Shown: in pieces, positions 229-14,251 of the stretch | How the letters are laid out: each line of letters opens with the position of its first letter | Position numbering within the stretch: the stretch's first letter is position 1 | Assembly: GCA_031372565.1 (NCBI GenBank) | Contig: JANMLN010000135.1 | Span: 1-14,251 of the forward strand | Direction of reading: 5' to 3' | DNA: 14,251 nt | Origin: Gemmatimonadota bacterium | GTDB lineage: Bacteria; Gemmatimonadota; Gemmatimonadetes; Gemmatimonadales; Gemmatimonadaceae | The notes under the pieces: generated by a model | Database searches by the model: none | Told to the model about the DNA's origin: nothing | What the model saw: only the letters and a program-made list of their open reading frames with translations | Position numbers and translations under genes: made by a program

Positions 229-760
229 ATGAAGCTTGAGTCCCGCCCGGCCACTGGCTGAGGTGTCCGCACTCTCCGCCCTCGTCGTTCGTTGCGCCCG
301 CGGGCTGAGCACCGGGTGCTACACGCCGACCGAGGCCGAGGCCGCGATTCGCCACGTATTCGCCGTGGATACTCAGCTGGTGCGGGACGGGAGCGATCCG
401 GTGGCGAAGCTCGACGGCGCACTGGCAGGATGCGGCGGCTGGAGCCGCCGCCGGACGCTTTACGGGGGCGACCAGCGGCCGATGGGTGGCGATGACCTGC
501 TCGATACGACCCGGGATGCCGCCAGGATCCGCGCCATATTCGTGGAGCCCGAGGCGGGGCGGCGCAGGGTGGGGCGGGCGATCCTCGCGGCTTGCGAGGC
601 CGCGGCAACGGCGGCCGGGTACGCGCGCTTCGAGCTGATGGCGACGCTGCCCGGAGTGCCGTTCTACGCGGCGTTCTGGTACGTGGCCGAGGAGCCCATG
701 ATGGACGTGCTGCCGGATGGCACGCCGCTCAGGTTCGTGCGGATGACGTGCACACCGCAG
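229..760 (+). pseudogene. GNAT family N-acetyltransferase, probable pseudogene (frameshift near 253-256, stop codon lost)
   Basis: ATG at 229 gives MKLESRPAT(G*), which resembles the GNAT 'xIRPAT' start but stops at 259-261. The body continues in another frame: LAEVSAL...VDTQLVRDG...GCGGWSRRRTLYGGD...AARIRAIFVEP...GRAILAACEAAA...FELMATLPGVPFY...LRFVRM. GNAT similarity ends near 760, yet the frame runs on to 1279 as non-protein-like sequence that overlaps the convergent SET gene. Confidence 0.75.
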
Positions 761-1052
761 GGTGGATGCACGAAGCGGTGCCGCGAATCGTCGCGACGCC
801 GCCTTCGTCGAACGTGGAAAGCCTGTGCCTATGACGTCACGCCCTTGTGTTGGTCAAGCCACCCCCGGGAGCGTGGTCATCTTGGCCGCCTCGTGACTCG
901 GCCGCCACCGAATGCCATGCGGCTCGTCGGGCCGGATGCATCGGGGTACACATCGAACACGGGAGCGCTCGCCGTGCACCGCAGGCCCACGCGAGGCACG
1001 GGCGTCGGCGCGAACGCGTCCTGGCATCCGAGCGCCAAGCAGCCAACCAACA

Positions 1053-1076
1053 CGAGGGCGCGAGGGCGCGAGGGCG
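1053..1076. repeat. Tandem repeat (CGAGGGCG)x3
   Basis: Three perfect 8-bp units at 1053-1060, 1061-1068 and 1069-1076, in the region between the GNAT remnant and the SET gene. Confidence 0.8.
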
Positions 1077-1185
1077 CACGCGCCGGAGCGATGACCCGCA
1101 GCGGTGCGCCCGCGCTGCGTCGCGCGTACGCCCATCTGCGACCACAAGATACGGGCCCGTCACGGGGACGGCGAGAGTTGCCGAG

Positions 1186-1704
1186 CTACCGCGCCTGCTT
1201 CTTCGGAATCAGGATCGTCCCGCGACAGGTGATCGCTCCGCAGCGGCACGGATACGCCTTCTTGGCGGCCGGCGTGTGACGCTCCTCGAGCACATACGCG
1301 TAGTCGTACACCAGCTCCTCGCCGGGCTCGATGTCGTGGATGGTCTCGATCCAGAGGCGGCGCCCGTCGACGACGACATCGCAATTGGGTGCGCACGAGT
1401 GATTGAGCCATCGTGCCTCGTTGCCGTTCACCCCCGCATCCACAACGATCTCGTCGTCAATGGCGAACAGGAACGTGTGATGGGTTCCGTCAGCGTTCGG
1501 GTATCGCGCTTCCGCTTGGGCGACCGTGAGCCGCTCGCCCGCATACTCGACGAGGCGGACGCCCTCGGCGATGGCGCGCGTCGCGAACGCACCACGTCCG
1601 GAGATGACCGAGGGACGCACCTCGAACGGGTACGGCGGACGCGGCTCGGGGCCCTCGAGCGCGGTCGGTGGCGGCGGGGCGTCCAGTCGGACCCGTCGTG
1701 TCAT
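1186..1704 (-). CDS. SET domain-containing protein-lysine N-methyltransferase with post-SET zinc motif
   Basis: Motifs SVISGRGAFA, VEYAGE, ARWLNHSCAPNC, GEELVYDY and post-SET CRCGAITC. ATG at 1704 has GGAG 6 nt upstream. Alternative start at 1716. Confidence 0.93.
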   Translation of the reverse strand: MTRRVRLDAPPPPTALEGPEPRPPYPFEVRPSVISGRGAFATRAIAEGVRLVEYAGERLTVAQAEARYPNADGTHHTFLFAIDDEIVVDAGVNGNEARWLNHSCAPNCDVVVDGRRLWIETIHDIEPGEELVYDYAYVLEERHTPAAKKAYPCRCGAITCRGTILIPKKQAR

Positions 1705-1991
1705 GCGGATCTCCATTCTGCAGCCCGCGCCTGCAGGTCAGTCGTCAAGCCACGTTCCCGCGCGACACTCGTCAGCAGGGCGATCCCGCTCCCGCAGGAG
1801 AGGAAGCCGGACATCTCTCCAAGGTGCGCGCTCCAGCCACGCGAGGAACTCGCGCGGCCAGACAGCAGATCTTTCGGGAGAATCGTGACGTGACACAAGA
1901 TCGGGACGAGAATCGGTGAAGGATACTCGCCCCGGCCCGTAGTTGGAATCAAGAAAACGTCCGTGAGCATCGACTGAGGCCGCGCCGACCG

Positions 1992-3431
1992 CTACCGCCC
2001 GATCTCGTCCTTGTAGGCCGCGCGCAGCCCGGCCAGATACTGGTCGAACAGCCCGGACAGCGTCTTGAACTCCGTCTGCACCGCCGTGCGAAACGCCGTG
2101 TCGGTCAGGAAGTCGTACAAGATGGCCGCCTCGGTCTTCGCGTCGATCAGGAACGCCGAGTGGCCGAGCGCGGAGTAGTTGTCCGCCGTCATCTCGTACG
2201 TGTGATTGCTGAAGTTCGAGCTGGCCGCCGTCACGCCGACGCCGGGGATGTCGCGCGCCATCCAGCCGGTCTCCTCGTAGCCCGACGGCCGCACCGGCTC
2301 GGGGTTGACGCGAATCGCGCCGAACTTCTTCACGTACGCGAACATCAGCTCCTCGAGCGTGCCCAGCGACACCCCATCGCGGTACTCGCCGCCGGTGCGA
2401 TCGATCTCGACCGTGGTGCCAGTGGCCAGCGCGGCGCCCTGTGCGGCGTGCACCATCATCGAGTCCACGTGCGCGAGGTACACCTCGTCGGGGTACCGGA
2501 TGTAATAGTCGACCACTGCGCGGTCGGGCACGACGTTGGGTGCGATCCCCCCCTCGGGAATCACCCCCTGCACGCTGACTTCGGGGCGCAGGCTCGACCG
2601 GATGTGGTCGACCGCGGAGTAGAACATCACCGCCGCGGCGACGGCGTTGCGACCGTTCCAGCTCGACATCTGGTGCGAGGGGCGTCCCTTGAAGACGAAC
2701 TTCACCTCGTTGATGTTGAGACAACACGAGCCGAACCCTGCGCGCGTGCGCGACGTCTGCCCTCCGATGCCGTGGCTGCGGATCATGATGTCCGCGCCCT
2801 TGAACACCCCGGCCTTCCACATCGTCACCTTCGACGGCGGACCGACCTCTTCGGCGGGCGTTCCGTAAATCTTGATGCGCCCCTGAATCTTCCGGTCGGT
2901 CATGAGCTGCTGAAGCCCGAGCGCGGCGGCCATGGCCACGGGGCTCTGCGCGTTGTGCTGGTCGCCATGAAAATCGCCTTGCGTGCCGCGCAGCGCGTCG
3001 TACTCGGCAATCAGCCCGAGTGTGGGCCCGTTCGTGCCCGCCGGCGCGTCCCACGACGCCACGAATGCGGTCTTGAGACCGGCCACGTCCCGTTCGATCC
3101 GGTACCCCTGCGAGGCAAGCACCTTGGTCAGCGTGTCGACGGCCTTGAACTCTTTCCATCCCGTTTCAGGGTTGCGACCAATCCAGTCAGAGAGGTCCTG
3201 CATCCCCCCCTTCCAGGCCGCCTCCACGCGCGCGAGCAGCTTGTCGCGGTCGGGGTTCGCGCGCGCGACCATGCGCTCGGCCATGGCGGTGGGCGCCAGC
3301 TTGGCCTGCAACGCATCCAGCTGGTCGAGGACTCCCTTGGCGGCGGCGCGCTCGGTGGGCGTTGATTGCGCCGACGCGACCGACGCGACGGCGACAAGGA
3401 CGATGAGGGCAACGAGCGGCAGCGTACGCAT
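1992..3431 (-). CDS. Peptidase M20 family amidohydrolase (AbgB/PM20D2-like) with N-terminal signal peptide
   Basis: 479 aa. Motifs NPETGWKEF, AEYDAL, HGDQHN (canonical HACGHN), GTPAEE, the dimerisation-domain segment KGRPSH...GRNAV...GGIAPNVVPD, and C-terminal NHT. N-terminus MRTLPLVALIVLVAVASVASA-Q looks like a Sec/SPI signal. Confidence 0.88.
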   Translation of the reverse strand: MRTLPLVALIVLVAVASVASAQSTPTERAAAKGVLDQLDALQAKLAPTAMAERMVARANPDRDKLLARVEAAWKGGMQDLSDWIGRNPETGWKEFKAVDTLTKVLASQGYRIERDVAGLKTAFVASWDAPAGTNGPTLGLIAEYDALRGTQGDFHGDQHNAQSPVAMAAALGLQQLMTDRKIQGRIKIYGTPAEEVGPPSKVTMWKAGVFKGADIMIRSHGIGGQTSRTRAGFGSCCLNINEVKFVFKGRPSHQMSSWNGRNAVAAAVMFYSAVDHIRSSLRPEVSVQGVIPEGGIAPNVVPDRAVVDYYIRYPDEVYLAHVDSMMVHAAQGAALATGTTVEIDRTGGEYRDGVSLGTLEELMFAYVKKFGAIRVNPEPVRPSGYEETGWMARDIPGVGVTAASSNFSNHTYEMTADNYSALGHSAFLIDAKTEAAILYDFLTDTAFRTAVQTEFKTLSGLFDQYLAGLRAAYKDEIGR

Positions 3432-3613
3432 GTGGATCAGACCTCGACCAGGTGAGAAGGGACGCGGGCGGCAAACGTAGGCGTGGACGGCGCGTGCGCG
3501 AGCGCGTCCGAGGGCCTACGGACTCAACGCACCAGGCATGACGCGCGCTGCGCCGATCGCGCGGGCGCCGTCGCCCCTTGCCGCGTGCGTGTTCGCGCAC
3601 AACCTTCGACGCG

Positions 3614-4765
3614 ATGCGGTGGTGTGCCCTCGGACTGGTGCTGGTGGTGGGCTGCTATCCGGCAGCCCGGCAGCCGCGCGCCCTGCCCCCGGTTGCCGAT
3701 GTGCAGCGCTGGGTCGATGAGGCCAAGGCGCGCCTCGACACGGCGCTCCGCACCACCGAAGCGCGGCGCGTGCTCGCGCAACTCGACCCCGACGCGACGA
3801 TCGTGGTGCGCGGGCGCGATTCCATCGTCGGCGCCGAGGCCGTGGTGCGGGCCCTGCGCAACGATTACGAGGGCGTTGGCGTGCCGTCGTTGTTCATGCT
3901 GGCGCCGCAGCGCGAAGCGTGCGCCGATGGTGTCTATGAGTACGAGGGGTCGCTGGGCGTGCAGGTGGTGTCGGCGGACCGCGCGCCGCGCCTCGTCGAC
4001 TTTCGCTATGCCGCCAAGTGGGCCGTCGACGGCAGGCGGGTGCGGCTGCGGCGCCTGGCGCTCGCCCCCCCCGAGAGCGAGGCCGGACCGAGTGAAGCGC
4101 TCTGTCCGAGTCGCTCGGTGGTGGAGTTTCCGCAGCGGCGCCTGGTCGTGACGTTCATGTCGAGTCTGTTCAGCGTCCAGACCAACCGGTCGCGCGCGAA
4201 CGTCGCCTCCTTCCTCCAAGGGCAGGGCTTCGCGGTGACTGATGTGCGCGATCCGATCGAACTCGGGTTTGCGAGCGAATCCGACATCGTCCCGTGGGGC
4301 ACCGTGGCGATCCGCGCACGCGTGGGGGGCGGCGTGTCGGTCGAAGCCTATTGGGCGCTCGATGATGCCTGGTGGAACGCCCAGGTCTCGGCCACGGTCA
4401 CCGGGCAGGCGCGGTTGAGCAACGTGCAGGTGCGCAGTCGGCCGTCCGGCGCTCTGGTCGGCTACGAGTGGGATCGGTGGCGCGTGGCCGCCGGCATCGC
4501 CGTGTCGGAGACGCGCATTCGCTGGCTCGACTACGTGAACGGCCTGACGGGCGGCGGTGCGCGCGTCCTCGCCGATCGCGCCACGGGGGGAACGGTGCTC
4601 GTGGGTTGGGCGCGACCGCTGTCGGGTGCGCTCGTCGCCGAACTGCGCCTGCAGCACACGTTCGCCATCGACGCCGCGCTTCCCGCCATCGCCGGTTCGC
4701 AGCCGGGTCGCGTGTCGCTCGGTGGAACGACTGCGGGGCTGTACGTCGGCTTCGCCGCCTTCTGA
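3614..4765 (+). CDS. Hypothetical exported protein, probable lipoprotein; N-terminal NTF2/SnoaL-like region and C-terminal outer-membrane beta-barrel-like region
   Basis: MRWCALGLVLVVG-C lipobox-like start. The segment LDPDATIVVRGRDSIVGAEAV...YEYEGS...YAAKWAVDG resembles the NTF2/DUF4440 pattern. The C-terminal half has alternating amphipathic strands (ALVGYEWDRWRVAAGIAV, LVAELRLQHTF) and ends LYVGFAAF. Codon usage is gene-like. Confidence 0.7.
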   Translation: MRWCALGLVLVVGCYPAARQPRALPPVADVQRWVDEAKARLDTALRTTEARRVLAQLDPDATIVVRGRDSIVGAEAVVRALRNDYEGVGVPSLFMLAPQREACADGVYEYEGSLGVQVVSADRAPRLVDFRYAAKWAVDGRRVRLRRLALAPPESEAGPSEALCPSRSVVEFPQRRLVVTFMSSLFSVQTNRSRANVASFLQGQGFAVTDVRDPIELGFASESDIVPWGTVAIRARVGGGVSVEAYWALDDAWWNAQVSATVTGQARLSNVQVRSRPSGALVGYEWDRWRVAAGIAVSETRIRWLDYVNGLTGGGARVLADRATGGTVLVGWARPLSGALVAELRLQHTFAIDAALPAIAGSQPGRVSLGGTTAGLYVGFAAF

Positions 4766-4779
4766 TCGCTCTCCAATCC

Positions 4780-6726
4780 ATGACCGTCATGCTTCGCACT
4801 GTTGCGCGCGCCGCTCGGCTCCTCCTCGTGGGCGCCGCCCCCGCTCTGGCACAGGGCACCAACTGGGGCACGCCGAGCGGGGATCCCGGCGCGATGCGCT
4901 GGTCGCCGCTCACGTCGGTCACGCCGCGGAACGTGGCGCAGCTGGCCGTGGCGTGGACGTACAAGACGGGGGAGAAGTCGATTGCGCCTGGCCCCAACCA
5001 GAAGTCGGCGCGTCCGGGGCAACTGCAGGTGTCGCCGGTCATCATCAACGACACGATGTACCTCTCGACGAGCTACGCGGCCGTGGTGGCGCTCGAGGCG
5101 AGCACGGGCCGGGAGCTGTGGCGCTACGATCCCGAGGTGTGGCGCGCAGGACAACCGTCGAACGGCACCGGGTTCGTGCACCGGGGCATCAGCACCTGGA
5201 CCGACGGGAGCGAGCGGCGGGTGTTCATCAACGCGCGGTGGCGGCTGATCGCGCTGGATGCGCGCACCGGCAAGCCGATTCCGTCGTTCGGGATCAACGG
5301 TGAAGTGAATCTCCTCGACGGCCTGCGCCGCAGGGTGAACCCGCTGCACTACACCAACACGTCGCCCTCGCTCGTGGTCGGCAATCTCGTGGTGGTGGGC
5401 AACGGTGTGGGCGATCGGCTCCGTTACCCCAACGACCCACCCGGCGACGTGCAGGCGTTCGACGTGCGCACAGGCAAGGGCGTGTGGACCTTCCACACGA
5501 TTCCCGACTCGGGCGAGTACGGCTGGTCGACGTGGGAAAAGGAGAGTTGGCGCACGATGGGCCACACCAACGTGTGGGCGCCCATGAGCGCGGACACCGC
5601 GCGCGGGCTCGTCTTCCTGCCCGTGAGCACCCCCACCAATGACTGGTACGGCGGTGACCGGCTGGGCGACAACCTGTTTGCGGAGTCCGTGGTCGCGCTC
5701 GACGCGAAGACGGGCACGCGGGTGTGGCACTTTCAGACGGTGCATCACGGCCTGTGGGACTATGATCTCCCTGCGCCGCCCGTGATGGCGACGCGCCGAG
5801 CCAACGGCCGCCTGCAGGATGTGGTGGTGGTGCCGGCCAAGACCGGATGGCTGTACGTCTTTGATCGGGCCACGGGAAAGCCTGTCTGGCCAATCCCGGA
5901 GCGCGCGGTGCCGCCCAGTGACGTGGCGGGCGAGCGCGCCTCGCGCACGCAACCGATGCCGTCGCGTCCGGCCCCCTTCGCGCGGCAGCGCGTGACCGAA
6001 GCGGACCTCATCGATTTCTCGCCGGAGCTCAAGCGGGCCGCGCTCGCTCTCTTTCGCCGTTACCGGAGCGGCCCCGTCTTCACGCCGCCGTCGGTGCAGG
6101 GAACGATCGCGATGCCGGGCGTCATTGGCGGAGCGGGGTGGGGCAGCACGAGCTTCGATCCCGATACGCGGACCGTGTTCGTGAAGGCCACCGAGAGTCC
6201 CGCGCTCTTCAAGGTGGTGACCGGCTCCCCGAATGACACGATCGGCTTCCGGACGACGATCGATCTGCGCGTCTCGGAGTTGAGTGTACAGGCCGACCCC
6301 GACTCGGGGATGCGCGGTGACCACACGCCGCCCGAGGCGCTCCCGCTCATCAAGCCGCCCTACGGTACACTGACGGCCATCAACCTCGACAATGGCGCGC
6401 AGCGTTGGCGCGTCGTGCTGGGCGACACGCCGCTCATCCGGAGGCACCCGCTGCTCAAGGGCAAGGCGCTGCCCCCGCTCGGGGTGGCGGGCGCGCCCGG
6501 CGGGACGGTGACGCGCGGCGGGCTCATCTTCATCACGGGCGGCGGCGACGTGCTCTACGCACTCGACAAGACCAACGGGAAGGTGTTGTGGCAGCACCCG
6601 TTGCCTGCCGGCCGCGGGTACGCCAACCCGGTCACCTACGCCACGCGCGATGGGCGCCAGTTCGTGGTGATCGCCAGTGGTGCGGGCGAGAACGGCGAAC
6701 TGGTGGCGTTCGCCTTGCCCGAGTAG
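4780..6726 (+). CDS. PQQ-dependent dehydrogenase (glucose/quinate/shikimate dehydrogenase-like), exported, without membrane anchor or heme c
   Basis: Motifs RWSPLTSVTPRNVAQLAVAW, Trp-docking repeats (ALEASTGRELWRY, ALDARTGK, AFDVRTGKGVWTF, ALDAKTGTRVWHFQ, ALDKTNGKVLWQH), NVWAPMSAD, HHGLWDYD, PGVIGGAGWG, KPPYG and ANPVTY. Signal peptide ends ALA-Q. Start at 4780 or 4789; the 4372 start in the ORF track is an overlap artefact. Confidence 0.93.
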   Translation: MTVMLRTVARAARLLLVGAAPALAQGTNWGTPSGDPGAMRWSPLTSVTPRNVAQLAVAWTYKTGEKSIAPGPNQKSARPGQLQVSPVIINDTMYLSTSYAAVVALEASTGRELWRYDPEVWRAGQPSNGTGFVHRGISTWTDGSERRVFINARWRLIALDARTGKPIPSFGINGEVNLLDGLRRRVNPLHYTNTSPSLVVGNLVVVGNGVGDRLRYPNDPPGDVQAFDVRTGKGVWTFHTIPDSGEYGWSTWEKESWRTMGHTNVWAPMSADTARGLVFLPVSTPTNDWYGGDRLGDNLFAESVVALDAKTGTRVWHFQTVHHGLWDYDLPAPPVMATRRANGRLQDVVVVPAKTGWLYVFDRATGKPVWPIPERAVPPSDVAGERASRTQPMPSRPAPFARQRVTEADLIDFSPELKRAALALFRRYRSGPVFTPPSVQGTIAMPGVIGGAGWGSTSFDPDTRTVFVKATESPALFKVVTGSPNDTIGFRTTIDLRVSELSVQADPDSGMRGDHTPPEALPLIKPPYGTLTAINLDNGAQRWRVVLGDTPLIRRHPLLKGKALPPLGVAGAPGGTVTRGGLIFITGGGDVLYALDKTNGKVLWQHPLPAGRGYANPVTYATRDGRQFVVIASGAGENGELVAFALPE

Positions 6727-6770
6727 CGCGCCCGCGACGAACGCGCAGGCCGCCAGATCGTCTCCGGGGT

Positions 6771-6800
6771 TTGCGCGCCATGCGGCGCGTGGGTTACCGT
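6771..6800 (+). promoter_or_regulatory. Possible sigma70-type promoter of the kinase gene
   Basis: TTGCGC (6771-6776), 18-nt spacer, TACCGT (6795-6800, TAnnnT pattern), 11 nt before ATG 6812. Weak match. Confidence 0.25.
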
Positions 6801-6811
6801 CAGGGACCTCC

Positions 6812-7990
6812 ATGCGCTCCATCGTCCCGTCCCGCGAGCAGAAACTGGTGTCCTGGGTCCTCTGGCCCGGGCTCTTCGCGGCGTGCACGCTGCTGTTTCT
6901 CTCGGCCGACAGCGACATCCGGCCGTCGCATGCCGTGCTCGCCTACCTGCTCATCGTGGTGGGCGCGAGCGCGAGCGGGAGCCACGTCCTCGGTGGCACA
7001 CTCGTCCTCGCGACCTACGCCGCGTTCCATCTCGGCGTCATGCCGCCGTACATCGAGCAGCGCTACTTCGGCTCGTCGGCGTGGGTCGTCCTCGTCGCCT
7101 TCGGCATGGTGGCATTCGCGATCAACGAGCTGGTACGCCGCTGGCGGCGCGAAGCGGAGCGCGCGATGCAGCGGGCCGATGAAGTCGTGCGGCTCGCGTC
7201 CGACCGGGAGAAGCTGCTCCACGACGCGAATCATGCCGAGGTGCTGCGCGAAGCGGATCGGCTGAAGGGGGCGCTGCTGGCGTCCATCTCGCACGATCTG
7301 CGGACGCCGCTGACGTCGATCCGCGCACTGGCCTCGCGTCCCGGGGGCCCCACGGCGCACGACGCGGCCATCATCCAGTCCGAAGCCGAACGGATGACCA
7401 CGCTGATCGAGGCGGTCCTGGACTGGTCGCGCGTGCAGGGCGGGGCGCTGCCCGTTCACATGGAGTTCAACACCGCGGACGACCTGCTCGATGCCAGTCG
7501 GCGCGCAAGCAGCGCCGCCCTGCGCGATCACCGTCTCAAGGTGACGCTCCCGGCGCACGGTATCCTGGCGGGGACCTTCGATCTGGTGCTCTCCGTCCGC
7601 ATCGTGAGCAATCTGCTCGAGAATGCCGCCAAGTACACGCCGCCGGGCACCCTCATCGAACTGATCGCGAACCGGGAGTCTCAGGCGTTGTGCGTCCACG
7701 TGCGCGACCATGGCCCTGGCGTACCGCCCGAGGAATTGCCGGTCATCTTCGAACCGTTCGTGCGGGGGGGGCGCGCCGCGCCCGAGACGGCCGGTCTCGG
7801 ACTGGGATTGGCCATCGCGCGGGAGTTTGCCCGGGCGCAGGGAGGCGAGCTTTCGGTCGAGAACGCCGACGGTGGCGGCGCCCGTTTTTCCCTCCGACTG
7901 TCGTTGGCGCGCGTCTCGGGCGAGCTGCCGCGTATCAGTGGCGCCAACAGCCGCTACAGCGCCGACTTTCCGGTGGTCGTCCCGACATGA
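6812..7990 (+). CDS. Membrane sensor histidine kinase (KdpD C-terminal-like: DUF4118-type TM region, HisKA, HATPase_c)
   Basis: Three to four hydrophobic segments, then a coiled coil. H-box LLASISHDLRTPLTSI, N-box NLLENAAKYTP, G1 VRDHGPGVP, F-box IFEPF, G2 GLGLGLAIA. Confidence 0.93.
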   Translation: MRSIVPSREQKLVSWVLWPGLFAACTLLFLSADSDIRPSHAVLAYLLIVVGASASGSHVLGGTLVLATYAAFHLGVMPPYIEQRYFGSSAWVVLVAFGMVAFAINELVRRWRREAERAMQRADEVVRLASDREKLLHDANHAEVLREADRLKGALLASISHDLRTPLTSIRALASRPGGPTAHDAAIIQSEAERMTTLIEAVLDWSRVQGGALPVHMEFNTADDLLDASRRASSAALRDHRLKVTLPAHGILAGTFDLVLSVRIVSNLLENAAKYTPPGTLIELIANRESQALCVHVRDHGPGVPPEELPVIFEPFVRGGRAAPETAGLGLGLAIAREFARAQGGELSVENADGGGARFSLRLSLARVSGELPRISGANSRYSADFPVVVPT

Positions 7991-8103
7991 GATGGCGCTG
8001 ACCGCCCCCGACCGCGTGCATCCAGCACACGGTGTTGAGACGTACGTGCCCTCAGGGGGTGCGCGCCGTCTCGTCGTTTTCCCCTTTCCCCGGTACTGAT
8101 CGC

Positions 8104-8610
8104 ATGCGCCTTCGAGTCCTCGCCACGTTCGTGCTCACCCTCGCCGCTGTGAACCCCGCTGAGGCGCAGGCGCCGTCACAGGTGACCTTCACCGGGTCGC
8201 CGCAGTCGTCGATTTCGTCCAACGTCGCGATTCCGGCGGGGCGCGCGTCGCTCTGGATTTCCGGCACGGTTCCGCAGATGGCCGACGCCAAGGCCCCCGA
8301 GGGATCGCGTGAACGGTGGGGGGATACCAAGGCGCAGGCGCGCACGATTCTCAAGCAGTTCGAGGCGCAGCTTGCGACCAAGGGACTCATGCTCAAGGAC
8401 GTCGTCTACATGCGCGTGTACATCGCGCCGGACAAGGCCAAGGGTGGGGCGTTCGACTTCAACGGCTGGTTCGAGGCATACGGCGAGTTCTTCGGCACCG
8501 CACAGAATCCGACCAAGACGGCGCGCTCGACGATCGGCGTTCCCGCGCTGGTCTCGCCCGACTGGCTGATCGAGATTGAAGCGTTCGCCGTCTATCCGGC
8601 GGATCGCTAG
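8104..8610 (+). CDS. RidA/YjgF/YER057c/UK114 family protein with signal peptide
   Basis: Motifs LWISGTVP, GDTKAQA, GLMLKDVVYMRVY, YGEFF, TARSTIGVPALVSPDWLIEIEA (catalytic Arg and C-terminal Glu present). Signal peptide MRLRVLATFVLTLAAVNPAEA-Q. Confidence 0.9.
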   Translation: MRLRVLATFVLTLAAVNPAEAQAPSQVTFTGSPQSSISSNVAIPAGRASLWISGTVPQMADAKAPEGSRERWGDTKAQARTILKQFEAQLATKGLMLKDVVYMRVYIAPDKAKGGAFDFNGWFEAYGEFFGTAQNPTKTARSTIGVPALVSPDWLIEIEAFAVYPADR

Positions 8611-8668
8611 CACTGTTCGCCCACCCCGTGCCCGGCCCCGCGTGGCCGATTCTCTGAGGTCCCGCAGC

Positions 8669-9148
8669 ATGCGCCGCACCGCCCGACTTGAGCGCCTCGT
8701 GGTCCTGACCGTGTTGCTTGCCCTCGGCGCCTGTGCCTCGGTCGGGGGCGGCCCCGCGCGGGGGGGCACGGCCGACGGCGTGAAGCTGTACCAGCGCCTG
8801 GGCGGCTACGACGCGTTGGCTGCCGTCACCGACGACCTGCTGGCGCGCGCGCTCGCAGACCCGGTGGTCGCACCATTCTTCAAGGGACTCGAACCGTGGC
8901 AGACACGGCGGGTGCGGCAGATGATCGTTGACCAGCTCTGTGAAGCGACCGGTGGTCCGTGTCTGTACGTGGGTCGGCCCATGGCGCTGGCACACGAACA
9001 GCTGCAGATCGACGAGAAGGCGTGGCAGGCGTTTGCCGGTCACCTGGTGGCGACGCTCACGCAGTTCAAGGTGCCGGACCGGGAGCAGCGTGAACTGCTC
9101 GAGATCGTCGGGTCGATGAAGAACGACATCATGCGCGGCGGCCACTGA
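8669..9148 (+). CDS. Group 1 truncated hemoglobin (trHbN-like), predicted lipoprotein
   Basis: Motifs LYQRLGG, DPVVAPFF (CD1 Phe), TGGPCLYVGRPM and proximal His in MALAH. Lipobox LGA-C follows a hydrophobic stretch. GAGGT Shine-Dalgarno at 8656-8660. Confidence 0.92.
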   Translation: MRRTARLERLVVLTVLLALGACASVGGGPARGGTADGVKLYQRLGGYDALAAVTDDLLARALADPVVAPFFKGLEPWQTRRVRQMIVDQLCEATGGPCLYVGRPMALAHEQLQIDEKAWQAFAGHLVATLTQFKVPDREQRELLEIVGSMKNDIMRGGH

Positions 9149-9164
9149 CGGCCGCCGCGCAGCC

Positions 9165-10046
9165 TCAGGGGATGCGCACCTTCACCCCTTGCTGCGCCGG
9201 GGCACCCGTCTTTCGTGCCCCCGGTTGCGCGTACGACCCCGGACCGCCTCCCATGCCTGGCTGCTTCAGCGGCTGCTGATCGTTGGACTGGGGCATGACG
9301 GGCATCGCGTTGTTCATGGGCGCCTGCCCCTGCACGTCGAACGTGTCGACGGTGGCCTGGAACTCGAGCGACTGGCCCCAGACGCGCTCCGCATTTTCCA
9401 GTACGGCGTACTGACGGAACTCCGCGGTGTTGATGTGGCGCGTTCGGCTCGGCGCGGCCTTCGGGAGTCCGGTCGAGTCGTTCAGCGCCTCCGTCTGCCA
9501 GCTCGTTGGTGCGCCCCACTCGGTGACCGTGATGCCGCTGGAATCGTTGCGGGTGACGGCCGCCCGTTCGGCTCGGAACACCTCGCCGCGCATCGGATCG
9601 ACGATGCCCACGTGGCGCACCAGGGTCATCGGCTCCCGCATGGACACCAGGAGCAGCGGATCACCGTCCTTGACCGGCAGCAATTCGAGTTGCTCGACCA
9701 GGAAATACTCCCGCATGATCTCCATTTTCTCGGCCTTCTTGATATCGTATCGCCAGAGCGCCTGTCCCGATCCGCGGTAGCCACCCGCCCCTCCGAACGT
9801 GGTGTACACGACCCACGTGCTCTCCGGGTTGATCCGCGCGACGCCCGTGGTCTCCTTGATGTGGAAGGAGATGCTGTCGTCGAGCGTGACGATCAGGTCG
9901 CACGGCGTGCAGGGCATGCGCTCGCTCGCGGCGAAGCGGATCGACGTGATCTTCTTGCCGGATTGCGGCGTGTCGTTGATGGCCTTGCAGGCCCCGGCCG
10001 CAAGGAGGAGCAACACGGGGGTCAGGACGACGCGCAGGAAACGCAT
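9165..10046 (-). CDS. Hypothetical lipoprotein
   Basis: 293 aa. MRFLRVVLTPVLLLLAAGA-C lipobox, beta-rich core, CTPC motif and a Pro/Gln/Gly/Met-rich tail. Protein-like composition; convergent with the hemoglobin gene. Confidence 0.75.
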   Translation of the reverse strand: MRFLRVVLTPVLLLLAAGACKAINDTPQSGKKITSIRFAASERMPCTPCDLIVTLDDSISFHIKETTGVARINPESTWVVYTTFGGAGGYRGSGQALWRYDIKKAEKMEIMREYFLVEQLELLPVKDGDPLLLVSMREPMTLVRHVGIVDPMRGEVFRAERAAVTRNDSSGITVTEWGAPTSWQTEALNDSTGLPKAAPSRTRHINTAEFRQYAVLENAERVWGQSLEFQATVDTFDVQGQAPMNNAMPVMPQSNDQQPLKQPGMGGGPGSYAQPGARKTGAPAQQGVKVRIP

Positions 10047-10276
10047 GCTGCGAAAGGTGTTGGACGGAGACGGGTGGGAATGGCGGCCGGCGGGCGACTG
10101 GGCCACTCCGTAAACGAACCGGGTGTGTCGGGGAGTTCAACCCCGAATGGACCGAAACGTCCGATTGCCGGGTGCGGTCGGGGGGGCGAGATTGGACAGA
10201 TCCGCCGCCGCGCCGTGCCCTCTCAAGGCCCGCGCGGCGCGCTTGTTCACGAGTTCTGACGACCATTCGCGCGCTG

Positions 10277-11176
10277 ATGCGACGCTGGAAAGACTATACC
10301 ATTCCGCAGACGGAGCGCCGGCACGATGTGCCGGCGACGCTCAAGGTTGTGGAGGGGGTTTGGAGCCCGCAGCTGCGCAACCGGCGCGACCTCGTGGTCT
10401 ATGTACCGCCCAGTTACGACCGGGATCCGGAGCGCCGATTCCCCGTCGTCTACATGCACGACGGGCAAAACGTGTTTGACCCGCACACGAGCTTCGCCGG
10501 ACACTGGCAGGTCGGGGGGGCGTTGGCATTCCATGCCCGGCGCGGACTCGAGGCGATCGTCGTCGCGATTCCGAACATGGGCGGCCAGCGATTGTCCGAA
10601 TACACGCCGCATGCCGACATGATTCGCGGCGGCGGTGACGGCGATCGCTACGTGGCCTTTCTGGTCGAGACGGTCAAACCGCTGATCGATCGCCGCATGC
10701 GGACCTTGCGCACCCCGGAGCACACGGCCGTCGTGGGTTCGTCGCTCGGCGGGCTGATTTCGTTGTATGCCCTCTTTCGGTCCCCGTGGACCTTCGGGAC
10801 GGCCGGGGTCCTGTCGCCGGCGCTCTGGTTCGCCGACGGTCGGATTTTCGACTACGTCCGGGAGCAGAAGCCGCCGGGCGGCCGCATCCATCTCGACATG
10901 GGGACGAGCGAAGGGCCGGATGCCCTCGAGGACACCCGCAACATGCGCGAACTCCTCACGGAGCGCGGGTTCATTCCCGGTGCGACGCTGTCGTACTTCG
11001 AGGACGTCGGCGCGCGGCACAATGAACGCGCCTGGGCGCGTCGCTTCCGCAAGTTGCTGCCGTTCCTGATCGGCGGTCCCTGCCCCGAAACGGGGCGCCG
11101 CAGCGGCGCCTTCAATTCCATGGACACGCCAACGTCCGAGTTCGCCGTGCTTCCGCGCGATGGGGCGGCCGGGTAG
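10277..11176 (+). CDS. Alpha/beta-hydrolase fold esterase (PF00756-type, Fes/IroE-like)
   Basis: Motifs RDLVVYVPPSY, FPVVYMHDGQNVFD, nucleophile elbow GSSLGG, SPALW, HLDMGTSE and catalytic His in ARHNERAW. No signal peptide. Confidence 0.9.
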   Translation: MRRWKDYTIPQTERRHDVPATLKVVEGVWSPQLRNRRDLVVYVPPSYDRDPERRFPVVYMHDGQNVFDPHTSFAGHWQVGGALAFHARRGLEAIVVAIPNMGGQRLSEYTPHADMIRGGGDGDRYVAFLVETVKPLIDRRMRTLRTPEHTAVVGSSLGGLISLYALFRSPWTFGTAGVLSPALWFADGRIFDYVREQKPPGGRIHLDMGTSEGPDALEDTRNMRELLTERGFIPGATLSYFEDVGARHNERAWARRFRKLLPFLIGGPCPETGRRSGAFNSMDTPTSEFAVLPRDGAAG

Positions 11177-11227
11177 GACGCCGCCTCCGTTTTCCGTCGG
11201 ACCCGGCTAGCTTTCTCCGGGTCTTTT
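11162..11227 (+). terminator. Two tandem hairpins with short U-tracts between the esterase and ATP-grasp genes
   Basis: Stem 1: 11162-11169 / 11180-11187, then TTTT at 11190-11193. Stem 2: GACCCGG (11200-11206) / CCGGGTC (11217-11223), then TTTT at 11224-11227. Confidence 0.4.
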
Positions 11228-11256
11228 CACAGCCAGCGAACAGGAACCGGGACTGT

Positions 11257-12204
11257 ATGGCGCAAGCGAAGAAGGTGGGGCTCGTCGTGGGGCGCGAGTG
11301 GTCGATGCCGCCGGCGCTGATCAAGGAGATCAACGATCGCGATCAGGGGGTGGTCTGCGACATCCCGAAGATCGGTACGCCGAGCGGAGCGCCCTCGCTC
11401 GACGGCGTGATCGGCTACGACGTGCTCGTCGACCGCATCTCGCACGAAGTCGGCATGTACCGGGCATTCCTCAAGCACGCGGTCATGCGCGGCGTTCGCG
11501 TCGTGAACAATCCGTTCATGTGGAGCGCGGACGACAAGTTCTTCGGCGCCACGCTGGCCGAGTCGCTGGGGGTGCGCAGCCCGAAGACGATGCTGCTGCC
11601 GAACCGCGAGTACGTGCCGGGCATCAAGCACGACGAGTCGCTGCGCAATCTCGTCTTCCCGCTGGACTGGCAGGCGGTCGTTGCGCACGTGGGGCTCCCC
11701 TGCATCCTCAAGGACGCCCACGGCGGCGGGTGGAAGGAAGTCTACGTCTGCCGCTCCCTCGAGGAGCTGATCCACAACTACAACACGTCCGGCCTCCTCA
11801 CGATGATCGCGCAGGAATTCATCGAGTGGGACGAGTTCGTGCGCTGCATGTGCATCGGGCAGCAGGAGATCCTGCCGATCAAGTATGACCCCAAGGCGCG
11901 CAAGTACCACGTGACCGACACCTTCCTCGCGCCCGCGATGCGTGAACGGATCATCGGGGATGCCCGGAAGCTCAATCAGGCGCTGGGGTACGACATGAAC
12001 TCGATGGAGTTCGCCGTGAAGGACGGCGTGCCCTACGCCATCGACTTCATGAACTGCGCGCCGGACATGGACATCTACTCGCTGACGCCGACCTACTTCG
12101 AGTGGACCGTGAAGGCGATGGCGGACATGCTGATCGCGCAGGCCACGTCGGGCGCCTCCGCACCGGCGAGCTGGCGCGGCTTCCTCGGCGGCCACAGCGC
12201 GTGA
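11257..12204 (+). CDS. ATP-grasp domain ligase (RimK/glutathione synthase-like fold)
   Basis: 315 aa. Motifs VDRISHE, VVNNPF...DDKF, SPKT, PCILKDAHGGGWKEV, AQEFI and MEFAVKDGVPYAIDFMN. Confidence 0.88.
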   Translation: MAQAKKVGLVVGREWSMPPALIKEINDRDQGVVCDIPKIGTPSGAPSLDGVIGYDVLVDRISHEVGMYRAFLKHAVMRGVRVVNNPFMWSADDKFFGATLAESLGVRSPKTMLLPNREYVPGIKHDESLRNLVFPLDWQAVVAHVGLPCILKDAHGGGWKEVYVCRSLEELIHNYNTSGLLTMIAQEFIEWDEFVRCMCIGQQEILPIKYDPKARKYHVTDTFLAPAMRERIIGDARKLNQALGYDMNSMEFAVKDGVPYAIDFMNCAPDMDIYSLTPTYFEWTVKAMADMLIAQATSGASAPASWRGFLGGHSA

Positions 12205-13565
12205 GCGACGCCGCGCTGACCCGCGCGATCGACGCATATCACGGCGGGCTCTCCGACGCGCTCGCGGCGGAGAGCTGGGGCTTTCTGGGTGACCAGCTCA
12301 CGAGGCGCGGGCTCTGGTTCGGCGAGCGCCCGCTGTGCAACGTGTTGCGGCCGCGCTTCCTGAGCGCGGCGGGCTATGACATCATGCGGCGCTCCACGAC
12401 GGCGTTGCTCGGCGCCTTCGATACGCTGTACACGGCCGCGTTGCGCGATGCGACGGTCCGCGCGCAGTTCAGGCTGACGCCGATCGAGGAGCAGCTCGTC
12501 ACGGAGGACCACGGGCTGCACCAGGGGAGCATCCTGTCGCGCCTCGATGCGTTCTTCACCGAGGACGGGCAGGGGGTTCGCTTCACCGAGTACAACGCCG
12601 AGACGCCGGCGGGCGCCGCGTATGGCGACGTCCTGACCGAGCTGTTCCAGGCGATGCCCGCGATGCGCGGCTTTCAGCGCGCGTGGCGCACCACGCCGAT
12701 GCCGGCGCGTCATCACACCGTGAATGCGCTGCTCGATGCCTTCGCGAGCTGGCGTGGCACGCGTGAGCAGCCACGCGTGGTCATTCTCGACTGGAAGGAA
12801 GTGCCGACGTTCCACGAGTTCCTGCTCTTCCAGCAGTTCTTCGAGGGGCTGGGCATCTCGTGCGTGATTGCCGATCCGCGTGACTGCGAGTATCGGGGCG
12901 GCGTGCTGTACGCCGACGGACACGCCGTGAACCTGATCTACAAGCGCGTCCTGATCTCGGAACTCCTCGAGCGGGGGGGCGGACTCGACCAGCCGGTCGT
13001 GCGGGCCGTGCGCGAGCGCGCCGCGTGCCTGGTGGATGGCTTCCGCTGCAAGATGCTGCACAAGAAGGCGTCGCTTGCCGTCCTGTCGGACGAGCGCAAC
13101 GCCCATCTGTTCAGCGCCACAGAATTGCGGACGATCCGCGACACCGTGCCCTGGACCCGGGTGGTCGAGGAGCGCCGAACAACGACGCATTCTGACACGG
13201 TCGACCTGATTCCCTACATCCACGCGCACCGCGAACGGATGGTGCTCAAGCCGAACGACGAGTACGGCGGTGCCGGGATTGTCCTCGGGTGGGAAGTGGA
13301 CGATACCCAGTGGGCGGCGGCGGTCGGCACGGCGCTTGCATCACCCCATGTCGTGCAGGAGCGCATTCATCTCCCGAGCGAACCGTTCCCCAGCGCCGTC
13401 GACGGCCGTCTGGAGATCGCCGGTCGGATCGTGGATACGGCCCCCTTCTGCTTTCAGGGCACGTACACGGATGGCTGTTTGTCCCGGATCTCCACGGCCG
13501 CGCTGGTGAATGTCACGGCGGGTGGCGGATCCACGGTTCCCACTTTCATAGTCGAGCCACGATGA
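12201..13565 (+). CDS. Circularly permuted ATP-grasp ligase (CP_ATPgrasp / glutathionylspermidine synthase-like fold)
   Basis: GTG start overlaps the upstream TGA (GTGA). The RLD...[11 protein letters not shown] metal-binding motif lies N-terminal to [27 protein letters not shown] and VVQE, which is the permuted order. C-terminal SR...VNV...GG motif. Confidence 0.88.
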
Positions 13566-14251
13566 GCGCGCACTTTCGACGGCCGAGCATTGGCGTCTCC
13601 ACGCAGACGCTGCACTCGATCGACCACATTCCGGCGGGCTTGCCGCAGTCGTGGGTCATGAACCAGCGATACCTGATGGCGGTGTCGGTGGTCGGCGGCG
13701 TCCCGCTGATGATTCCGCTGTACGATGACGATCTCGATACGCTGCGCGAGATCTACGATCGGCTGGACGGCGTGCTGGTACCGGGCGGGGTGGACATGAA
13801 CCCGACCTCGTACGGGGAGCACAAGTCCGAGCTGTGCGGCGCACTCGATCCGGCGCGCGACCGGGTCGAGTTGCAGCTCGTGCGGTGGGCGGTCGCCGAC
13901 AAGAAGCCGGTGCTGGGCCTGTGCCGGGGGCTGCAGGTGATCAATGTGGCCATGGGTGGGACGCTCTACCAGGACCTCGAGGCGCAGTATCCCGGCGCGA
14001 TGAAGCACGACTATTTCCCGACGATGGGTTTCGAGCGCGATCACCTCGCGCACACGGTCGAGATTGCGGCGGGGAGCCGGTTGCACTCGCTGCTCGAGGA
14101 GCACGACGTCCGGGTCAACTCGATGCATCACCAGGGGATCAAGCTGCTGGCCCCGGCGCTGGTGGCGTCGGCCATCGCGCCCGACGGGCTCATCGAGGGG
14201 GTCGAGAGCGCGGACGACCACTTCCTGGTGGGGGTGCAGTGGCATCCGGAG
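13562..14251 (+). CDS. Gamma-glutamyl-gamma-aminobutyrate hydrolase family protein (PuuD-like, peptidase C26, class I glutamine amidotransferase fold); 3'-truncated by the window
   Basis: Translated by hand from ATG 13562 (ATGA overlap): [14 protein letters not shown]...LDGVLVPGGVDMNP...RDRVE...PVLGLCRGLQVINVAMGGTLYQD...VNSMHHQG...APDGLIEGVE...VGVQWHPE. The Cys-His-Glu triad is intact. Absent from the ORF track because there is no stop in the window. Confidence 0.95.
   Translation, partial: MSAHFRRPSIGVSTQTLHSIDHIPAGLPQSWVMNQRYLMAVSVVGGVPLMIPLYDDDLDTLREIYDRLDGVLVPGGVDMNPTSYGEHKSELCGALDPARDRVELQLVRWAVADKKPVLGLCRGLQVINVAMGGTLYQDLEAQYPGAMKHDYFPTMGFERDHLAHTVEIAAGSRLHSLLEEHDVRVNSMHHQGIKLLAPALVASAIAPDGLIEGVESADDHFLVGVQWHPE

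Follow-up and report, generated by a model that had tools for sequence, protein, structure and literature searches.

The assembled front part of a candidate amidoligase cassette in a Gemmatimonadota bacterium

Four genes that run from position 10277 to the contig end on the + strand of a 14,251-base stretch of DNA from a Gemmatimonadota bacterium (GenBank assembly GCA_031372565.1, contig JANMLN010000135.1) encode a serine esterase, a classical ATP-grasp ligase, a circularly permuted ATP-grasp ligase, and a C26-type hydrolase. We favor, with moderate confidence, the reading that these genes are the assembled front part of a conserved amidoligase cassette whose products would make and turn over, without ribosomes, a small peptide of gamma-glutamyl type or a conjugate of such a peptide with an amine. 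In this model, the core of the cassette would consist of three unrelated ATP-dependent carboxylate-amine ligases, namely the two ATP-grasps and a GCS2 ligase, and around that core would stand serine hydrolases plus, in Gemmatimonadota, a PuuD-like C26 hydrolase. The stretch, which we call the window, is one entire contig of an assembly of 201 contigs and 4.44 Mb that is 95.85% complete. A first-pass annotation of the window had described a system of two ligases plus two hydrolases; the conserved core proved to be three ligases instead.

Gene order and distribution of the cassette

The esterase gene (10277..11176, +, 299 amino acids) is separated by an 80-nucleotide (nt) spacer, read from the sequence (11177..11256), from the classical ATP-grasp gene (11257..12204, +, 315 amino acids), which is followed by the permuted ATP-grasp gene (12201..13565, +, 454 amino acids) and the C26 gene (13562..14251, +), of which residues 1 to 230 of about 259 are encoded before the contig ends. 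Four co-oriented enzymes with catalytic motifs had been described here, and all of these open reading frames (ORFs) were confirmed, with triads and motif residues that are invariant in orthologues; the functional meaning that we attach to individual motif residues of the four enzymes is presumed. Both of the 4-nt overlaps that had been claimed among the last three genes, GTGA at 12201-12204 and ATGA at 13562-13565, are present in the sequence. At the second, the C26 start codon overlaps the permuted-ligase stop codon, and the C26 gene is translationally coupled to the permuted-ligase gene in this locus. Judged by eye from their N termini, the cassette enzymes appear to be cytoplasmic.

We surveyed loci with a permuted-ligase profile, using one genome per species. 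Of at least 599 candidates, at least 549 were confirmed, and the best 80 were analyzed (64 labeled Gemmatimonadota, 10 Chloroflexota, 2 Bacteroidota, 1 Rhodothermota, 1 Armatimonadota, 1 Ca. Sysuimicrobiota, and 1 unlabeled). The classical ATP-grasp, permuted ATP-grasp, and GCS2 genes lie on one strand in 66 of these 80 loci, which come from six phyla, and a GCS2 gene follows the permuted-ligase gene in 74; the remaining 6 break off no more than about 500 nt from that gene. In a set of 11 relatives' loci, the two ATP-grasp genes were adjacent every time (11/11), with GCS2 after them in 10 and C26 present in 9. Such an arrangement is far beyond chance, and the conservation of gene order across phyla that the first-pass annotation had proposed to survey was borne out.

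To count gene families, we took the 55 loci that reach 9 kb or more and clustered their ORFs (called from stop to stop with a minimum of 70 amino acids, compared by blastp at E <= 1e-8, and cleared of overlaps greedily), a procedure that undercounts. GCS2 was found in 54 of these long loci, the permuted ligase in 53, and the classical ATP-grasp and C26 in 46 each. Less frequent families included an extra PF02222-type ATP-grasp (9 loci), an S9/PD40 peptidase (6 loci, 4 of them from Chloroflexia), and a TonB receptor (6 loci). The ligases were always accompanied by hydrolases, though the hydrolase family changes.

Presence of the ligases is also correlated from genome to genome. At a threshold of E <= 1e-50, 19 of 41 relatives have the permuted ligase. 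Those 19 are also the ones with the classical ATP-grasp, which the remaining 22 all lack, and the cluster-type GCS2 occurs in 18 of the 19, the exception being the assembly studied here. One of the 41, G012, is an unpublished genome, and it carries none of these conclusions by itself. Phylum-wide, among genomes at least 90% complete, the permuted ligase is present in 51 of 201 genomes and 23 of 99 genera. The cassette is an accessory trait that is patchily distributed. One genus carries the permuted ligase in 7/7 genomes, three of which are single-contig, so cultured hosts probably exist. Mean column identity was 79% for GCS2, 73% for the classical ATP-grasp, 67 to 69% for the permuted ligase, 66% for C26, and 57% for the esterase; by this measure conservation of the ligases is unusually high. 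A quick tree of the permuted ligase, rooted at the midpoint, was built from 80 rows that had been picked for their resemblance to a Gemmatimonadota query. The other phyla are nested in it among rows from Gemmatimonadota, a pattern compatible with transfer of the cassette between phyla.

Individual loci showed further variation. At two loci from close Gemmatimonadaceae (L074:3772-4584 and L100:6186-6998), about 750 nt containing two opposite-strand ORFs lie between the ATP-grasp and permuted-ligase genes; the inserted pair, by its appearance to the eye, may be a toxin-antitoxin pair. A different insertion occupies the same junction in L070. In a Chloroflexia locus (L064:4637-10749), a block of permuted ligase, GCS2, and S9 peptidase stands twice in tandem after a single ATP-grasp gene. 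A GCS2 gene (L090:8359-9487) and a permuted-ligase gene (G070, C2:203763-205113) each match in two abutting pieces, which may reflect a frameshift or a sequencing error.

The three ligases

The window's permuted ligase scores 19.3 bits against PF14403 (CP_ATPgrasp_2), and the same-genus copy in locus L014 scores 26.4 bits, both under the 32-bit cut-off. Most of its relatives (55 to 77% identity) have PF14403 in precomputed hits, so the window protein is a divergent member by homology and not by its own score. The names that these relatives carry at source are "hypothetical protein," "circularly permuted ATP-grasp superfamily protein," and "glutathionylspermidine synthase." No match of the window protein to PF03738 (GSP_synth) was found at E <= 0.01, a model that occurs together with PF14403 in 2 of 120 relatives listed, and the protein falls outside the eukaryote-type glutathione synthetase sequence family. 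The permuted-ligase family comprises at least 5,690 clusters (90% identity) at E <= 1e-10 among 8,000 candidates scored. A fusion search among longer proteins returned a single 846-amino-acid protein, with 35% of the query covered, which weakly suggests that fusions of the permuted ligase are rare.

The E130-x-N132 motif and the K350/G356/G357/G359 loop are invariant among orthologues, and a profile of 11 orthologues matched 3n6x (1.4e-9) and YjfC (0.003) among PDB sequences. The best Foldseek matches of an AF2 model of the ligase (pLDDT 87.6) were human, plant, and yeast glutathione synthetases (TM 0.66 to 0.70), and VIA-align gave YjfC 30.8, YgiC 30.5, homoglutathione synthetase 28.9, GspS 28.3, and human glutathione synthetase 28.2. 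When classical ATP-grasps are aligned to the model, only their first 216 to 277 residues align, to model residues of about 190 to 452, which fits a circular permutation; the segment that is C-terminal in classical enzymes is placed at the N terminus, as in the fold of glutathione synthetase, GspS, and YgiC. The characterized neighbors of this fold (glutathione synthetase, homoglutathione synthetase, GspS, trypanothione synthetase, Cp1B, and YgiC/YjfC) all join an amino acid or polyamine to the carboxylate of a small acid or peptide. PMC12568646 terms YgiC and YjfC peptidylpolyamine synthetases, and a passage of PMC12506659 describes YgiC as being without Gsp synthase activity. The Escherichia coli pair (PDB 7uk6, 7uk8, 7uka) differs from the window protein in its 12 to 15% identity, in its length of about 390 amino acids, and in being unlinked to GCS2.

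The classical ATP-grasp belongs to a family that no Pfam model covers: it gave no Pfam match at E <= 0.01 and scored 34 bits against the RimK family TIGR00768, for which the cut-off is 143.4 bits. It nevertheless has the ATP-grasp fold, with a Lys/Gly-rich loop and acidic residues that we take to be Mg ligands, and K152, G156-158, E187, E251, D263, and N266 are invariant among its orthologues. One use to which such an enzyme could be put is reversible tagging of proteins in the manner of RimK, LysX/ArgX, or Pup, with the ligases adding amino acids or a short peptide tail and C26 and the esterase removing it, as the first-pass annotation had offered as an alternative. We consider this improbable. 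No recurrent carrier or target gene accompanied the enzymes among ORFs of at least 70 amino acids in the 55 long loci, and those ORFs of that size that did occur in long spacers looked like insertions, which leaves the earlier tagging proposal unsupported. Ddl lies within about 1 Z unit of RimK among the structural matches of the classical ATP-grasp, and every relative of the permuted ligase has small-molecule substrates. Finally, PMC2588565 argues that GCS2-like ligases beside amidotransferase-like peptidases make peptide metabolites, not protein conjugates.

The third ligase lies beyond the window. In the same-genus genome G005 (locus L014), a GCS2 gene stands immediately 3' of C26 and scores 191.7 bits against PF04107 and 507.5 bits against NF010039 (cut-off, 371), and in three further genomes of the genus (G002, G003, and G004) an opposite-strand DUF4153 gene lies between C26 and GCS2. 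The cluster-type GCS2 is of the YbdK family (TIGR02050, 278 bits against a cut-off of 176; PDB 1r8g at 1.2e-34) and retains the G-h-E-x-E signature as GIEEEY. Within its own family it falls in a separate equivalog, NF010039, and in this it differs from E. coli YbdK (1r8g). To our knowledge, no physiological substrate of YbdK has been established. The signature itself is described in PMC2588565. A complex prediction for the permuted ligase with GCS2 returned no answer (score 0.00) and counts neither way. The first-pass annotation had stated that the cluster continues past the window and that a YbdK/GCS2-like ligase may follow: the contig end makes the continuation unreadable here, and the same-genus genomes G002 to G005 do show both the continuation and the ligase, which this assembly lacks.

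The hydrolases and the flanking sequence

The C26 protein matches PF07722 at 213 bits (E, 5.8e-63; cut-off, 20.5), and its presumed Cys-His-Glu triad (C121, H228, and E230), all of which falls within the window, is invariant across 13 orthologues, placing it among Peptidase C26/class-I amidotransferase-type enzymes, for which we predict gamma-glutamyl amide hydrolysis. It is 83% identical to a full-length same-genus copy, whose nearest solved relatives are Lin1909 (1e-41) and then PuuD (4e-32). A C26 gene is present in 57 of the 80 loci and in just one (Rhodothermales) of the 16 loci from outside Gemmatimonadota. C26 stands as a component of the system in this locus; it is confined almost wholly to Gemmatimonadota, and loci of Chloroflexia have an S9 peptidase in its place.

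This distribution bears on a second alternative, in which the cassette serves the detoxification or catabolism of amines or polyamines in the manner of Puu or Pau: a ligase of glutamine synthetase fold would gamma-glutamylate the amine, and C26 would release it later. The pairing of a glutamine synthetase-superfamily ligase (GCS2) with a PuuD-like C26 does resemble PuuA/PuuD, PuuD being the second-closest solved relative of C26 as noted above, and the nearest folds of the permuted ligase (YgiC, YjfC, and GspS) use spermidine. We still assign this scheme a low probability. The ligase trio persists in the 15 of 16 non-Gemmatimonadota loci that have no C26; three ATP-consuming ligases fit catabolism poorly; and the PuuD equivalog NF008471, with its cut-off of 266 bits, was missed both by the truncated window C26 (123.5 bits) and by the full-length copy in L014 (126.9 bits). 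No amine oxidase or aldehyde dehydrogenase, and no PuuB/PuuC-type gene, was seen among the family examples scanned with Pfam, a scan that included no search aimed at PF00120, PuuB, or PuuC.

The window esterase matches PF00756 at 96.5 bits (E, 2.9e-27; cut-off, 22) and has an apparent Ser-Asp-His triad (G154-x-S156-x-G158, D207, and H248) that is invariant across 13 orthologues, to which it is 40 to 54% identical. Among solved structures, it is closest to feruloyl esterases of CE1 and to siderophore esterases that resemble IroE, with E values from 2e-11 to 1e-7. A siderophore role, to which the IroE-like esterase and the TonB receptor could be connected, was considered and set aside, the receptor family occurring in just 6 of the 55 long loci, all of them from Gemmatimonadota. 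The clustering also recovered a second esterase-like family with a weak PF00756 match, here called fam4, to which the window esterase (fam5 in the clustering) shows zero match. Fam4 is present in 41 of the 55 long loci and stands directly upstream of the ATP-grasp gene, on the same strand, in 35. The esterase of the first-pass annotation is thus present and of the expected family, and it belongs to the accessory family; the core esterase-like family, fam4, is absent here.

Could the esterase and C26 be mere neighbors of the ligase pair, with no pathway in common? The 80-nt spacer, the lineage-restricted occurrence of C26, and the insertion of unrelated genes in this genus would all suit that idea, as would the placement of the esterase, which, depending on the locus, lies upstream on either strand or downstream on the opposite one. 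Nevertheless, 34 of the 55 long loci, Bacteroidota and Rhodothermota among them, have a member of the esterase family within a few kilobases of the ligases, and C26 accompanies the ligases in most of the 80 loci and is ATGA-coupled here. We therefore regard chance adjacency as very improbable and retain both hydrolases, the esterase in an accessory role, in the predicted cassette.

Within the spacer, TTTT comes after a GACCCGG/CCGGGTC hairpin. By folding energy the spacer does not outdo shuffled sequences (z = -0.47), and a terminator scan made no call in the spacer. Across positions 9900-14251 the scans found no promoter and one terminator-like site, inside the esterase gene, a count no higher than in shuffles. 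No Rfam family matched at the gathering threshold anywhere in the 14,251-nt stretch. The six sequencing runs are all DNA sediment metagenomes, with no RNA data among them.

The genes upstream of the cassette (236-10106) look unrelated to it. They encode a GNAT protein (236-1279, +), an M20-type peptidase (1992-3431, -), a PQQ-dependent dehydrogenase (4372-6726, +; PF01011, 638 bits), a histidine kinase with DUF4118 (6677-7990, +), a RidA/L-PSP protein (8032-8610, +), a truncated globin (8576-9148, +), and a 313-amino-acid ORF without a family (9165-10106, -).

Known pathways and the possible product

A third alternative is that the cassette is a noncanonical route to glutathione or gamma-Glu-Cys, in which GCS2 would play the part of GshA and the permuted ligase that of a glutathione synthetase of eukaryote type. 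The known pathway leads through glutathione to glutathionylspermidine and trypanothione, by GshA, GshB or eukaryotic glutathione synthetase, and GspS or TryS with its amidase domain. No cassette ligase reaches the curated cut-off of GshA, GshB, glutathione synthetase, or GSP_synth, and the cassette hydrolase is C26, not CHAP. The canonical gene pair was also not recovered in the lineage: GshA (PF04262) was found in none of the 41 relatives, whereas the same search found it in the E. coli control, and the best match to GshB (PF02955) was 60.5 bits across the relatives and 24.3 bits in this genome. GST_N_3 (PF13417) occurs in 2 of the 41. BshC (PF10079), in contrast, occurs in 39 of the 41 whether or not the cassette is present, with a homologue in this genome (contig C29:35433-36284, 133.7 bits). 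This occurrence points to bacillithiol as the main low-molecular-weight thiol of the lineage, and Gemmatimonadetes are listed among the predicted bacillithiol producers in PMC6282198. Together, these tallies and the presence of BshC regardless of the cassette imply that the cassette is not the main thiol pathway of the lineage, and we think a disguised glutathione route unlikely. DinB_2, which had been entertained as a hint of a thiol S-transferase, was dropped, being found within the cassette in a single genome (G003; locus L013 and the overlapping L002).

The system also appears to depart from standard putrescine metabolism, with no Puu-type oxidase or aldehyde dehydrogenase in the Pfam-scanned examples described above, and the match to a standard glutathione or putrescine pathway that would have refuted the first-pass annotation was not seen. 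A full-text literature search gave no characterization of the gene set, in agreement with the first-pass annotation, which knew of no identified product. A thiohistidine-dipeptide paper (PMC13674229) was rejected as a match, its ATP-grasps being linked to sulfoxide synthases and not to this cassette. The closest precedent is comparative genomics: Iyer, Abhiman, Burroughs, and Aravind reportedly predicted, in 2009 (Mol Biosyst 5:1636), amidoligase neighborhoods that combine ATP-grasp, CP_ATPgrasp_2, and COOH-NH2 (GCS2) ligases with peptidases. The present cassette shares with them the same enzyme classes in one operon and the predicted role in making a peptide-derived metabolite; the window copy differs in having no core esterase-like gene, in its C26 before GCS2, and in being cut by the contig end. 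The existence of this type of neighborhood, reportedly predicted in 2009, is not new, and the cassette copy is a further, truncated, and slightly rearranged member of a predicted, uncharacterized type of system. A summary of that work in PMC4431377 describes operons in which different ATP-grasp ligases stand together with COOH-NH2 ligases and peptide ligations follow one upon another.

We infer all substrates and the order of steps in the following mechanism; the gene set, catalytic residues, folds, gene order, co-occurrence, and patchiness are observed. GCS2 would convert a carboxylate, most likely that at the gamma position of glutamate, to an acyl phosphate and couple it with an amino acid or amine. 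The permuted ATP-grasp would then phosphorylate the free C-terminal carboxylate of that product and add an amino acid, as glutathione synthetase does, or a polyamine, as in GspS or YgiC. The classical ATP-grasp would add one further residue or make the incoming dipeptide. C26 would remove the gamma-glutamyl group, and the esterase or esterases would degrade or recycle the finished compound or conjugates of it, with an S9 peptidase taking the place of C26 in Chloroflexia. By fold and family resemblance, this scheme has a striking one-to-one analogy with the path that runs from GshA via GshB to GspS and its amidase. We would expect a small gamma-glutamyl peptide of three or four residues, or else a peptide-amine conjugate, presumably an accessory metabolite such as a stress protectant, an osmolyte, or a secondary thiol, not the main redox buffer.

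Several points weigh against this reading of the locus. What suggests the gamma-glutamyl assignment is likeness to the YbdK and PuuD families, and neither the PuuD nor the RimK equivalog cut-off was reached. The structural neighbors of the classical ATP-grasp include the protein-modifying RimK, LysX, and ArgX at about the Z score of Ddl. Fam4, the core esterase-like gene, is not in the window, and the one homologue that this genome has is a paralogue of 35% identity. That paralogue (contig C182:13229-13999; L104:5212-5976) lies among DUF4178, SPFH, HD-domain, and S41 peptidase genes, a neighborhood unrelated to the cassette, and was rejected as the missing core esterase. In the same-genus genome G003 (L013:2700-4130 and 7201-9514), an opposite-strand beta-lactamase-fold gene separates the esterase from the ATP-grasp, and DinB_2 and DUF4153 genes separate C26 from GCS2; with unrelated insertions of this kind in the genus, tight co-regulation of the cassette is not guaranteed. 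The family counts in the long loci come, as stated, from a procedure that undercounts. Lastly, GCS2 gave no PF04107 and no tblastn match in this assembly, 95.85% complete as it is, so the three-ligase core is drawn here from relatives. The DUF4153 gene was not found in the assembly either, and the joint absence of DUF4153 and GCS2 points to an assembly gap. We think that GCS2 probably lies in an unassembled stretch of a few kilobases past the contig end and has not been lost.

If our favored reading of an amidoligase cassette is right, the product could be described more closely, which we do tentatively and with somewhat less than even confidence: it may be a new gamma-glutamyl tri- or tetrapeptide or a peptide-polyamine conjugate, an analogue of glutathionylspermidine made by nonorthologous enzymes, that serves as an accessory protectant (a second thiol, a metal binder, or an osmolyte) in bacillithiol-using bacteria of soil and sediment and that gene transfer has carried from phylum to phylum. 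A trio of ligases that always stay together, 65 to 79% conserved across phyla, points to a metabolite that nobody has isolated. Identification of this product would give the large YbdK/GCS2 and CP_ATPgrasp_2 families their first physiological substrate.

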